Positions 33,087-59,730 of a DNA stretch of 64,000 nucleotides are shown here, in pieces. Positions within the stretch are counted from its first letter, which is position 1. Each line of letters starts with the position of its first letter. A program made the translations under genes and the position numbers. Source of the stretch: a virus (taxonomy: Duplodnaviria > Heunggongvirae > Uroviricota > Caudoviricetes); the IMG/VR virus record IMGVR_UViG_3300014208_000025, positions 180,967 to 244,966 of that record; one strand, written 5' to 3'. The notes beneath the pieces were generated by a model, which worked only from the letters and a program-made list of their open reading frames with translations, was not told where the DNA came from and did no database searches.

Positions 33087-33148
33087 AAATTCAAAGAACT
33101 GCCTATAAGTATCTACGATAGACACAAAATGTCAAGTCAAAAATGATT

Positions 33149-33222
33149 TGGTGGAGCCGAAGGGAATTGAACCCTTATCTGTTCAGTGCGAGTGAACTGT
33201 CCTACCGTTGAACGACGACCCC
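33149..33222 (-). tRNA. tRNA-Ala(CGC)
   Basis: GTTCA-CTCGCAC-TGAAC; G3:U70; ACCA. Confidence 0.9.
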
Positions 33223-33816
33223 ATATCCTTTGTATTCTTTTTGTTTTCCACAAATGACTCGTAACAGCATCGATGGTGATATTCCTTTTTCACGACAAAA
33301 TTTTCTCAATCCAACGATTTCTATTGGATTTCCATTTGAGTCATTCACCACGTATTTCTTTTTTACTCCTGAATTGGGCTTGGGAATACCTGTTACGGCT
33401 TTTTTCATTTTCGTAATCCAGTCATCACTCATTTTCTTTCCCCAGTTGGGATGATTCTTTCCACTCAGAGAAGCAGACATTTTGGCAACAGTTTCCGGCG
33501 TGGCTTTACATCCCAATCTACTGGCTCTTGGAGTTCTGCACATGTTATATCCATGTTCGTCTTTGAATGAATGTAGTTTCCGAATCCAATGTTCTTCTTG
33601 GTCCACCAATAACGTCTTAGAACAACGTTCAACAATTTCATAAACAAAACAATTCCCCCCATATTTGTTCCACGCATTTTGAAGGTATGGGTTAAAATGG
33701 TCGCCACGATTAAGAGAAAGTTTATGTTGGCTCCACCGTTTGTTTAACTTTCCAGTAGAACCAAGATATCGTTTTCCATTAACAACATTCCGAATAGCAT
33801 AAACACCTATGTTCAT
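33202..33816 (-). CDS. GIY-YIG homing endonuclease with NUMOD3 motifs (204 aa)
   Basis: GVYAIRNVVNGKRYLGST, RWSQH, GYNM; ETVAKMSASLSGKNHPNWGKK; stop lies inside tRNA-Ala(CGC). Confidence 0.9.
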   Translation of the reverse strand: MNIGVYAIRNVVNGKRYLGSTGKLNKRWSQHKLSLNRGDHFNPYLQNAWNKYGGNCFVYEIVERCSKTLLVDQEEHWIRKLHSFKDEHGYNMCRTPRASRLGCKATPETVAKMSASLSGKNHPNWGKKMSDDWITKMKKAVTGIPKPNSGVKKKYVVNDSNGNPIEIVGLRKFCREKGISPSMLLRVICGKQKEYKGYGVVVQR

Positions 33817-33827
33817 GACTATAAGTA

Positions 33828-34102
33828 TTGAAAGAGTTAGCCAAGATTCTGTTTTAATCTAACATTTATCTCAAAACTTTCGTTTTGGTGACGTGCTAAT
33901 AGTCACTGCTCCAACCATTCCTTAATAATGAATAACTCACATTCTCAGGACTTTAGGATTGCTGCGGATTTGTGGTTTTATCGGACTTGTCTAAACTACC
34001 CAATTTCTGAGTTTAAGCAAGTCCTCCCAAACAACGAGTTAAGCAGTCTTGAACTTCCTCTAAATGAAGGCTTTACTCCATTCAGCGTTAGAATTCTTCC
34101 AA
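33828..34102 (-). ncRNA. rnpB: RNase P RNA, compact, reduced S-domain
   Basis: P1 TTGGAAGA/TCTTTCAA; P2 TCTAACG/TGTTAGA; CR-I GAGGAAGTTCAAGA pairs with CR-V ACAGAATCTTGGCT (P4 with bulged U); CR-IV AGATAAATG; P5 CTGC/GCAG-CAA; P6 TAACTC/GAGTTA; L15 GGT; GAAA-capped P18. Confidence 0.85.
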
Positions 34103-34151
34103 ATTCAAAGAACTATGGCAAAGATACCACAAATCCAATTGGTGTCAACGT

Positions 34152-34376
34152 TTATTTTGGTTCATTTTCACCCATTCTTTGAGCAGCTTTTGCAACTGCT
34201 AAACCCAACGTCAGTGTCACGTAGGAAGAATCAATCGGTTTCAATTCCTTGAAATGAATCGTGTTGTATGTAATGTTGAAACACAAGACCAACATCCAAA
34301 GGAAAAACACCAAACGCATCATGGAGTAACCCTCGGCGTTATCCTCGAAAAATGATTTCAGTTGGGTCAAATCCAT
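34152..34376 (-). CDS. Small two-TM protein, holin-like (74 aa)
   Basis: YSMMRLVFFLWMLV and YVTLTLGLAVAKAAQ hydrophobic segments, charged C-terminus. Confidence 0.45.
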   Translation of the reverse strand: MDLTQLKSFFEDNAEGYSMMRLVFFLWMLVLCFNITYNTIHFKELKPIDSSYVTLTLGLAVAKAAQRMGENEPK

Positions 34377-34379
34377 AAA

Positions 34380-34718
34380 TTACCTCGGCACCGTATAATT
34401 AAATTCCAATGGAGCCGATGGAGCATTCGTCGGATAACTCAACTCAGATGACGGTTTCGAAGTGCCTACTCCATTCTTGGCCACAAGGCGGAATTTGTAT
34501 GTGCCAGCGGTCAACCCCTTTATTACTCCGACATTGGTTGTTCCGGATATGGTAACAACCGCAACAAAATTGGTGTTGGGAGATTTGCTTTGTTCAATGA
34601 CATAACTTGTCACGAACTCATTGGTCGGATTGTGTTTCCACGTAAACCAAAAATCGCCGGCAAACACACAGGATGATAAAATCATCAAGGTTATACTAAT
34701 GAATAGGAATTTCTTCAT
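34380..34718 (-). CDS. Secreted FN3-domain protein (112 aa)
   Basis: Signal peptide MKKFLFISITLMIL; LTAGTYKFRLVAKNGVGTSKPS. Confidence 0.75.
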   Translation of the reverse strand: MKKFLFISITLMILSSCVFAGDFWFTWKHNPTNEFVTSYVIEQSKSPNTNFVAVVTISGTTNVGVIKGLTAGTYKFRLVAKNGVGTSKPSSELSYPTNAPSAPLEFNYTVPR

Positions 34719-34731
34719 GTCAATAAATAGG

Positions 34732-35088
34732 TTACTTCACGTTGAAAAGTTTGAAATCTGTTGGAGCCGTCGGAATAGAATTTGTTAACGGCGGTGTGGA
34801 GTTGGTGGAAGTGTAATTGACTTCGTTGGATGGGAGACTTTCAACTCCATTAATTGTATAAGCCGTGGCCACGAAGAAATAAGTGACTCCGTTGGTCGGT
34901 AGTTGAATGGTAACGTTGGTTTGATTTCCAACGTCAACTCTAATTTTATAACTTCCACTATTGGTGCCATAAAGAATAGCATACCCAGTAACATTTGAAT
35001 CAGGACTCGGATCCCAAGCTAATCCGACCGCAAACAAAGACATTACAGTTAGTAACATCAATATAACAAATACAAAGAATTTTTTCAC
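34732..35088 (-). CDS. Secreted FN3-domain protein (118 aa)
   Basis: GTG start MKKFFVFVILM; LAWDPSPDSNVTGYAILYGTNSGSY...TYFFVATAY...ESLPSNEV. Confidence 0.75.
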   Translation of the reverse strand: MKKFFVFVILMLLTVMSLFAVGLAWDPSPDSNVTGYAILYGTNSGSYKIRVDVGNQTNVTIQLPTNGVTYFFVATAYTINGVESLPSNEVNYTSTNSTPPLTNSIPTAPTDFKLFNVK

Positions 35089-35094
35089 AAAAAA

Positions 35095-35178
35095 TGGTGT
35101 TACTGGAGAGATTCGAACTCTCATGGAATTACCCGATAGGTCCTTAGCCTATTGTGTCTGCCGTTCCACCACAGTAAC
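35095..35178 (-). tRNA. tRNA-Leu(AAG)
   Basis: ATAGG-CTAAGGA-CCTAT; Leu-type D-loop GGAACGGCAGAC, class II arm, A73. Confidence 0.85.
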
Positions 35179-57165: not shown

Positions 57166-58115
57166 TGGAGGGAATTCTACATTGAGAAGGTTCACCAAAG
57201 AAGTCAAGGATTTCACGGAAGTTCCCCGAAGGTCTATTCCTAACAGTTTTGAGAGTTGCTTCGGTTGAGACTACACCGTTGCGTATCGGCCCTCAGAGAT
57301 TATCGTAGCCTTGCGAGCTACCTTCCTCTTCATCCACATTGACCCGCCACGGGGACGGTATCATGTAGCCGATAAGTCTGCCTTTGAATGGTGGCATGTC
57401 CATTAAAACGATAACATATTCCGCGTTTATTCAAACGTCTGCCTTGCGAGCAGTAAGTACCGCGAAGTACTCCGTTCACTTCCACACGAACAACTTTCAC
57501 CTTGCGAGTTACGGTTGACTGAGTTACCTTACGGCCTCAGCATTAAGACTTTTTCAGTCATCGCTAGCACCGACTTTGCTTTTTAATGATAGTGGCTTTG
57601 ACACCACAACACATAGTTCCAATAACTATTGCTCTACTTTGAGCTATATCGAACCTAACCTGCTGGTGCGGTGCTTGCTGTTTCATAAACCTTGCGGAAT
57701 ACAAAATCCAGCACCAGCACTAATCTTTCCTTGCGGTACTCAATCCATCCTTCAAGATTCCGTCCTCAGTGTAAGCCTTGGCCGGTTTCTATCAGATTGT
57801 CACGAAGCTTTTGACTGCTAATCTCAAACCTCATTACTTAGCTTAAATCTCAACTCTCACTGTTGCGCTCGGCAGATGGTAGTGCTCGTCGGCATCGTTA
57901 GTAGTATGTTGCCGGAGTTACCCACAACATACATTTTCCATCCCAGCTTTAAGTGTAACACCCACCTTACGGCGATGTTTACAGATTTTGCTCGTTGTAT
58001 AGGCGTCCAAACCTTTCGGCTTGGTGGGCACCCGTTAGGGAGTGTCCCTTTGGCCCCATTACTGGGGTTTATCTTTATCCACCCTTGCGGGTGAAACGGA
58101 GGCCATACCCCCCGT
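57166..58115 (-). ncRNA. Giant structured ncRNA (~950 nt), GOLLD-like
   Basis: No credible ORF; dense hairpins with recurring GCAA, GAAA, GTAA and TTCG tetraloops; ends CCTCCA; inside a phage tRNA array. Family call from size and context only. Confidence 0.6.
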
Positions 58116-59431: not shown

Positions 59432-59486
59432 TGGTGGTCGCATCTGGACTTGAACCAAAGGAAACAACTGAATTGTTATTGCGACC
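59432..59486 (-). ncRNA. 55-nt mini-tRNA copy 1
   Basis: GGTCGCA-AT-AACAA ttcag TTGTT-TCC-TTTGG ttcaagt CCAGA-TGCGACC-ACCA. Confidence 0.75.
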
Positions 59487-59488
59487 GT

Positions 59489-59543
59489 TGGTGGTTGGCG
59501 CAGGACTTGAACCTGCGGAACATGCTAAACGTGTATGCCAACC
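59489..59543 (-). ncRNA. 55-nt mini-tRNA copy 2
   Basis: GGTTGGC-AT-ACACG tttag CATGT-TCC-GCAGG ttcaagt CCTGC-GCCAACC-ACCA. Confidence 0.75.
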
Positions 59544-59572: not shown

Positions 59573-59647
59573 TGGCGCCCCATGCGGGATTCGAACCCGC
59601 ACAAAATTCTTTTAGAGAGAACTGCACTGGCCGTTGTGCTAATGAGG
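59573..59647 (-). tRNA. Candidate amber suppressor tRNA (CUA)
   Basis: Loop CT-CTA-AA at canonical positions 32-38; stem pairs well only when shifted by one nt (8-nt loop); intact D/T arms, G73, CCA. Confidence 0.55.
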
Positions 59648-59730
59648 CATTGGAAGAAAGAATGATTGCGTCAGTGATTTTGTCACCGTTGCCTGAAACC
59701 TATGTAAAGTTGTTCTTCATTACGCCAATA

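Follow-up and report, generated by a model that had tools for sequence, protein, structure and literature searches.

Few ribozymes are common to all cellular life; RNase P RNA is among them, and it has been treated as a cellular housekeeping gene. Natural loss of its specificity domain (S-domain) is already known (PMC7191817): in the archaeal type T RNA of Pyrobaculum and its relatives, the S-domain is nearly gone and the RNA is active (Lai et al. 2010, cited in PMC7191817). Engineered minimal RNAs (Min 1 RNA; C-domain plus RnpA) cleave pre-tRNA with protein. Bacterial catalytic domains alone reportedly cleave pre-tRNA with RnpA (Green et al. 1996; Loria and Pan 2001). A virus-borne look-alike, the camelpox RNase P-like RNA, was described earlier and showed no pre-tRNA cleavage in vitro (PMC3001073), and the phage RNA described here is therefore not the first RNase P-like RNA known from a virus. 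The literature searched contained no account of a phage RNase P RNA, although most subscription journals were outside the scope of that search.

The present RNA lies in a 64,000-nucleotide (nt) stretch of DNA, here called the window, taken from a 279-kb IMG/VR virus record with an estimated completeness of 79%. The sequencing runs containing this record are groundwater metagenomes. The comparison of sequences described below supports a phage-encoded RNA with a bacterial type-A catalytic core, whose specificity domain is cut to P7 and one hairpin. That it is a homologue of RNase P RNA with a reduced S-domain is very likely, and it is probably a genuine rnpB-type gene of a giant phage, derived from the bacterial type-A lineage. 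Position 1 of the RNA corresponds to window position 34102 and position 275 to 33828, on the minus strand. The elements placed in it are as follows.

33828..34102, minus strand: whole RNase P-like RNA, from the P1 5′ end (34102) to the P1 3′ end (33828); 275 nt, based on P1 pairing and all helices
34095..34102, minus strand: P1 5′ strand UUGGAAGA; 8 bp with UCUUUCAA at 33828-33835
34087..34092, minus strand: P2 5′ strand UCUAAC; 6 bp with GUUAGA at 33858-33863
34060..34085, minus strand: P3 hairpin; 10 bp, 6-nt loop
34047..34060, minus strand: CR-I (J3-4) and P4 5′ strand GAGGAAGUUCAAGA, bulged U at 34052; invariant in 19/19 relatives
34043..34046, minus strand: P5 5′ strand CUGC; pairs with GCAG at 33962-33965, J5/15 CAA at 33959-33961
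34036..34040, minus strand: P6 pseudoknot 5′ strand AACUC; pairs with GAGUU at 33934-33938 in the P17 loop
33971..34031, minus strand: remnant specificity domain; P7 (34027-34031 with 33971-33975), GA, hairpin (33983-34024), GAUAAAA
33910..33958, minus strand: P15-P16-P17 arm; P15 is UCC/GGA, L15 GGU at 33914-33916
33888..33906, minus strand: extra hairpin between P15 and P18, GUGAC-UAUUAGCAC-GUCAC; stem covaries in relatives
33872..33887, minus strand: P18, CAAAAC-GAAA-GUUUUG; 6 bp, GAAA tetraloop
33863..33871, minus strand: CR-IV (J18-2) AGAUAAAUG; RF00010 consensus uAGAugAAUG
33839..33852, minus strand: CR-V, ACAGAA (J2/4) and P4 3′ strand UCUUGGCU; matches the RF00010 consensus ACAGAACCCGGCUUA

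The RNA, on the minus strand, is intergenic: a 74-aa ORF ends at 34152 on one side of it, a GIY-YIG gene starts at 33816 on the other, and 34102..33828 itself is crossed by no minus-strand ORF reaching 40 aa. Near-identical copies carry 1-2-nt indels and other differences, almost all inside the variable S-domain hairpin, and the overlapping plus-strand ORFs are therefore ruled out as coding sequence.

All the elements of the type-A catalytic domain are present, namely P1-P5, the P4 and P6 pseudoknots, P15-P17, the L15 GGU, P18, CR-I, CR-IV and CR-V. The first-pass annotation, made from sequence alone, had named most of these, and every helix that it listed forms at the coordinates it gave. Its 8-bp P1, the bulged U of P4, P5 followed by CAA, the L15 GGT, the GNRA-capped P18 and CR-IV all held, as did its claim that the RNA is phage-encoded, given the virus record in which it lies. 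Two helices were adjusted. The P2 described as 7 bp held only in part, with 6 bp found and the seventh pair lying beyond a U.U mismatch, and the P6 pseudoknot, given as TAACTC/GAGTTA, is present and is counted here as 5 bp (AACUC/GAGUU). The extra hairpin GUGAC/GUCAC had not been mentioned. Its loop, UAUUARCAC, is conserved in close relatives, and the hairpin is missing from the shortest family members.

In a type-A RNA, CR-I leads into the P4 5′ strand with its bulged U, and this test is met. CR-I of the RNA reads GAGGAAGUUC, and the consensus is GAGGAAAGUCC; relative to the RF00010 consensus there is one A fewer, and the base after GU is U, not C. P4 is formed by AGU-[U]-CAAGA with UCUUG-GCU, giving 3 bp, the bulged U and 5 bp, and is a true pseudoknot. 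The E. coli P4 has the same geometry of 3 bp, bulged U and 5 bp. In the relatives with GAGGAAGCUC, the U.G of P4 becomes C-G, and the register of 3 bp, bulged U and 5 bp is therefore fixed. At the 3′ side, the type-A test for CR-IV (J18/2, AGAUGAAUG) and CR-V (ACAGAA, with the P4 3′ strand GGCUUA) is met, CR-V of the RNA reading ACAGAAUCUUGGCUA. The L15 region reads AUGGUUGGA, with the GG invariant in relatives, so that the type-A GGU in the P15/16 loop for the tRNA 3′ RCCA is present; the pairing itself is inferred.

The minimum-free-energy fold of the 275-nt RNA alone is unremarkable (z = -1.58); support for the RNA rests on the comparison with relatives. We projected the structure of the window RNA onto a 19-sequence MAFFT alignment, which was sequence-based and not structure-fitted. 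In this alignment 75% of the structure cells pair, compared with 59% in shuffles and 34-42% when the partners were slid. The covariation score was 0.386 against 0.152 in shuffles (none of 500 as high) and 0.07-0.12 with partners slid. Misalignment by MAFFT under-counts P1, P3, P6, P7 and P16, and motif-anchored tables were used for the helix checks.

Individual helices behaved in the same way. P4 was paired in 100% of cells in the 19 sequences, with compensatory change at 4/8 pairs, and the remaining four pairs are nearly constant (no change at A-U, G-C and C-G, and a single sequence with U-A for U.G); in the motif-anchored table P4b has 12 distinct strand pairs, fully paired in 25/26 relatives. 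For P2, 89-97% of cells were paired in the alignment with compensatory changes at 5/6 pairs, and 21 distinct strand pairs, nearly all fully paired, were found in the motif-anchored table. P5 was 98.7% paired with compensatory changes at 3/4 pairs (12 distinct strand pairs, 25/26 relatives fully paired), and P15 was 93% paired with compensatory changes at 3/3 pairs (12 distinct strand pairs, nearly all fully paired). P6, a type-A hallmark formed by J5/7 with the P17 loop, has at least 5 bp in 26/26 relatives at a fixed loop position and in about ten sequence versions. According to the motif-anchored tables, P1, P3, P7, the extra hairpin and P18 are maintained with differing sequences in relatives; a complementary P1 of other sequence occurs at the equivalent place in nearly all of them, and the P3 hairpins differ in sequence, with the P3 base 97% paired in the alignment. 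The proposal that type-A features are kept thus held, the core helices covarying across relatives. These results support selection on the RNA structure, most strongly at P2, P4, P5, P6 and P15. J3/4, the bulged U, the AA of J5/15, the GG of L15, J18/2 and the ACAGAA of J2/4 are invariant family-wide, and the catalytic-domain positions universal in bacteria are all invariant in the reduced family.

The specificity domain shows the opposite result in the type-A comparison, since the test for a domain with P8-P14 and CR-II/CR-III is not met. The first-pass annotation had put about 75 nt between the P5 strands, with a weak P7, one long hairpin and no recognisable CR-II/III; this held, the distance being 77 nt. 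These comprise the P6 5′ strand, a 5-bp P7, GA, a 42-nt hairpin and GAUAAAA. P7 is UUUGG/CCACA with one U.C mismatch, and it covaries in relatives (UGUGG/CCACA, CGUGG/CCACG, UUUGG/CCAAA, GUAG/CUAC), which keep P7 and the flanking GAG...GUUAUA. The sole S-domain hairpin beyond P7 (GGACUUG...CAAGUCC) is hypervariable, ranging in relatives from a 3-bp stem with a GAAA loop (about 10 nt) to inserts of more than 100 nt. CR-II/CR-III and P8-P14 were not found between the P5 strands, and nothing resembling CR-II/III was found across the family. The text CAGAAAUUGGGU (CAGAAA..GGGU) in the hairpin loop was considered as CR-II/III and rejected, as relatives do not share it.

A referee may object that the standard models do not recognize this RNA. 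Searches with the Rfam RNase P families at gathering thresholds gave no match in the window or the whole record, the RNA did not reach the RF00010 gathering threshold (100 bits), and the Rfam RNase P models gave no match at E<=10 on either 1001 nt or 301 nt. Profiles of RF00010-positive canonical RNAs used with nhmmer gave nothing significant in the window, the best hit (E=0.47) being at the CR-IV/V site. The absence of an Rfam RNase P match had been set beforehand as a refuting check and formally counts against the identification, but it is outweighed by the HMM links. An HMM built from eight other minimal members, with the window RNA and its close kin excluded, matched the RNA at E=4.6e-10, aligned over 34090-33836, and this was its sole significant match in the window. 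The family HMM, which contains no RF00010-positive seed, matched three RF00010-passing loci, L074 (E=2e-8), L080 (E=1e-5) and L079 (E=1.3e-5). These matches coincide with the Rfam coordinates; in L074 and L080 most of the HMM length is aligned, in L079 only its 3′ half. The window RNA, itself a seed, scores 135 bits against this HMM. The Rfam models require 100-plus S-domain positions that are absent here. As the RNA is linked statistically to RNAs that pass RF00010 and these positions are missing from it, we do not accept the silence of Rfam as refutation.

The motifs themselves were compared with expectation. The window contains the CR-IV/CR-V pattern a single time, with 0.00 occurrences expected, and GAGGAAGTTC likewise a single time, with 0.08 expected, which excludes a chance origin of the CR-IV/CR-V motifs in the RNA.

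Relatives were collected by scanning IMG/VR with the CR-IV/CR-V pattern, which gave 119 loci, and a P3/CR-I pattern added further loci. About 45 of the loci have GAGGAAG(U/C)UC 117-330 nt upstream of CR-IV and a complementary P1 around the whole; the lengths of these RNAs are 186-414 nt. Almost all lie among tRNA genes of uncultured large phages, some beside tmRNA. The window RNA meets the definition of this group of reduced phage-array RNAs, that is, the profile match, the GAGGAAGYUC core, a variable insert after P7 and a viral tRNA array. No published name for such RNAs was found in the literature searched. Groundwater, sediment, wastewater and soil data contain copies with 95-99% identity that differ only in the variable hairpin.

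Ten loci of the IMG/VR scan pass RF00010, with scores from 316 bits down to 131.8 (L080, 263 nt) and 111.8 (L074), and L080 has 25 nt in place of 101 S-domain model positions. From these falling scores and the S-domain loss in L080, we conclude that phage tRNA arrays hold a graded series of RNase P RNAs from full-length to minimal.

Full-length RF00010 RNAs (209-280 bits) were observed at L001 9376-9703, L014 2968-3382, L084 800-1149 and L096 4462-4786, between tRNA genes in G+C-rich viral contigs; phage arrays therefore carry unreduced rnpB genes too. tmRNA genes near reduced RNAs lie at L013 2039-2422, L054 5523-5903, L018 7926-8314 and L109 7151-7485, about 1 kb and up to about 1.5 kb from the reduced RNA, and one of them is permuted.

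Several candidates were set aside. L121 and similar loci have P3 and a CR-I-like start with no downstream core, and were dropped as chance or remnant. A contig scan with CGCTG..AGAGGAAGTTC gave at least 120 matches, all of them chance and none matching the family HMM, and is uninformative on presence in bacteria. In blastn searches against deposited phage genomes, neither the window RNA nor its relative L013 gave a match, and the matches of L096 were to bacterial rnpB only, in mislabelled records.

The window contains 37 tRNA genes at 31969-59648, all on the minus strand, the same as the RNA, which lies inside the array. CCA is encoded at the 3′ end of 34 of the 37 predicted genes, and of a 35th after a one-base boundary shift. 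Genome-encoded CCA would fit the retained L15 GGU; this is an inference, with no pairing data. Immediately upstream of the RNA is the following element.

34105..34148, minus strand: promoter-like TTGACA-16 nt-TATCTT (34148..34121) and leader AGTTCTTTGAATTT; 10/12 promoter positions match, with TG

The 14-nt leader AGTTCTTTGAATTT ends 1 nt ahead of P1. An equivalent promoter (TTGACA-N16-17-xATxxT) with the identical leader is found at 33135..33087 on the minus strand, about 1 kb downstream of the RNA, where it precedes a long CCA-ended tRNA-like gene (~33086-32983), and AGTTCTTTGA is found upstream of the RNA in several relatives too. A role of the promoter and leader in expression of the RNA is inferred.

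In the RNA libraries of four studies (sediment, wastewater, soil) there are contigs that cover 33823-34131 with 90-99% identity. Their ends fall at 33823/33826 and 34104/34106, two of them stopping no more than 5 nt from the predicted 3′ end, and the similarity of several to the window ends at the RNA boundaries. These contigs may hint at a stable transcript, but contigs do not prove transcription, and the parts of the 801-nt stretch that they leave uncovered are no evidence either way. One RNA-library contig, from run X17, is a 315-nt cyclic contig of a 90-95% identical relative, placed on window 33823-34104. The same 29 nt stand at its start and at its end, and the 3′ end of the RNA is followed, after a linker of 13 nt, by the 5′ end. 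Such a contig could result from tandem gene copies, from a circular RNA or from the assembly itself, so a tandem or circular form of the RNA is a possibility.

Other features of the array were noted. A free-standing homing-endonuclease gene with GIY-YIG and NUMOD3 (33202-33816, minus strand) starts 12 nt past the 3′ end of the RNA, and its stop codon overlaps a tRNA-Ala; in a relative, an RNA-library contig continues past the RNA into this gene. Within the array, immediately upstream of the RNA, 34380-35124 (minus strand) encodes two small proteins of 112 and 130 aa that look secreted and each contain a fibronectin type III domain. A GOLLD RNA (RF02032, 161.5 bits, full model) lies in the same array at 57262-57719 on the minus strand. 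Two adjacent 55-nt tRNA-like genes at 59432-59543 on the minus strand have a 7-bp acceptor stem, a 5-bp hairpin replacing the D and anticodon arms, a normal T-arm and ACCA, and are possible elbow-less substrates for an S-domain-less RNase P. A tRNA with the anticodon CUA (59573-59648, minus strand; amber suppressor, Pyl according to ARAGORN) may hint at TAG read-through or recoding in the phage.

We consider it likely that the RNA is a working tRNA-processing ribozyme that uses the host RnpA, although catalytic activity and use of the host protein are inferred and untested. The first-pass annotation had noted that no RnpA gene is in the window. This held and extends further, as no RnpA (PF00825) homologue was found in the 279-kb record as a whole, nor in any of five large relatives, of which three are 100% complete. 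The enzyme would therefore need a host protein, an unknown phage protein or none; the suggestion that it borrows the host protein or acts alone remains inference, as does activity itself. The host RnpA is proposed as the partner because the phage encodes none. In the proposed mechanism, the RNA would be transcribed from its own promoter within the tRNA array, the P4 and P6 pseudoknots would fold it into the usual active site, the host RnpA protein would be bound, and the 5′ leaders of the many tRNA precursors of the phage would then be cut off. Without the module that reads the T-loop, substrates would be held by the acceptor stem, pairing of the 3′ CCA with the L15 GGU and the protein-bound leader.

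Two alternatives remain, both of which we regard as unlikely. The first is that the RNA is a decoy or regulator derived from RNase P RNA and not a ribozyme, keeping the protein- and tRNA-binding surfaces so as to sequester host RnpA or pre-tRNAs and thereby redirect or shut down host tRNA maturation. The loss of the specificity domain, the altered CR-I and the absence of an encoded RnpA would suit a decoy, and the camelpox RNase P-like RNA, inactive in vitro (PMC3001073), provides a precedent. However, the universally conserved catalytic blocks are invariant family-wide and both pseudoknots are kept by compensatory change, which a decoy would not need, and the phage's own tRNAs require 5′ processing.

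The second alternative is an active ribozyme whose partner is an unrecognised phage protein, or that has none, in place of host RnpA; such a partner would dock on the variable hairpin or on the extra hairpin between P15 and P18. In its favour are the lack of a PF00825 homologue in six phage records, the conserved UAUUARCAC loop of the extra hairpin and the unknown function of most genes of these phages. Against it, there is no constant protein-gene neighbour, relatives lying directly between tRNA genes; the extra hairpin and P18 are missing in the shortest members; and conservation is highest in the regions that contact RnpA (P2-P3, J18/2, J2/4).

The lack of an Rfam match and the fold-energy z of only -1.58 could suggest that a bacterial rnpB was captured and is now decaying as a pseudogene, or that the resemblance is due to chance. 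This is very unlikely and is contradicted by about 45 relatives in which every core helix shows compensatory changes, by the independent HMM that finds the site at E=4.6e-10, by motifs against 0.00 expected, and by 95-99% identical copies in several environments with changes limited to the variable hairpin.

The reading that we prefer thus remains a type-A ribozyme that probably works with host RnpA. A bolder form of it is possible, though less likely, in which an elbow-blind RNase P would be a dedicated enzyme for the unorthodox substrates of the phage and not a spare copy. Such substrates could be CCA-ended tRNA-like RNAs without a normal D-arm and elbow, for example the 55-nt mini-tRNAs at 59432-59543. 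These mini-tRNAs could be matured by a ribozyme that relies on the acceptor stem, CCA and leader alone, whereas the host enzyme might fail on them. If this is true, the translation set of the phage would be independent of the specificity of host RNase P.

A conserved viral lineage in which RNase P RNA has repeatedly been pared down provides a natural series of what the ribozyme can lose while still being retained by selection. Its smallest forms do not reach 200 nt, and in place of the S-domain there is a hairpin that can have almost any size. The finding adds 5′ maturation of tRNA to the translation functions brought by large phages, exposes a blind spot in Rfam-based annotation, and offers compact ribozymes for structural and engineering work.

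In comparison with E. coli M1 RNA (rnpB, RF00010), the phage RNA is alike in P1-P5, P4 with the bulged U, the type-A P6 with L17, P15-P17 with the CCA-binding GGU, the GNRA-capped P18, CR-I, CR-IV and CR-V. It differs in having the extra P15-P18 hairpin and in being carried by a phage without rnpA. At 275 nt it is shorter than bacterial type-A RNAs (about 350-400 nt), from which it differs further in lacking P8-P14 and CR-II/III and in its CR-I, GAGGAAGUUC.

The first-pass annotation had drawn a parallel with archaeal type T, and S-domain loss is the only feature in common. Type T RNA is archaeal, chromosomal and works with archaeal proteins, whereas the phage RNA has P6, the L15 GGU and P18. 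The archaeal type T model (Rfam RNaseP-T) gave no match to the RNA, and membership of type T is not met. The loss in the two is convergent and does not reflect shared ancestry. The camelpox RNA is virus-borne and RNase P RNA-like, as is the phage RNA, but its virus infects eukaryotes and it lies outside any tRNA array. Also comparable are the RF00010-passing phage-array RNAs (L080, 131.8 bits, 263 nt; L074, 111.8 bits; L085; L079), which share the viral tRNA-array setting; the GAGGAAGUUC core is common to the window RNA, L080, L074 and L079. These RNAs keep P8/P9, some with CR-II/III-like stretches, whereas the window RNA retains even less. In having a catalytic domain without the module that reads the T-loop, it is like the engineered minimal RNAs; those are laboratory deletions, whereas the phage RNA is a natural, conserved and evolving lineage.
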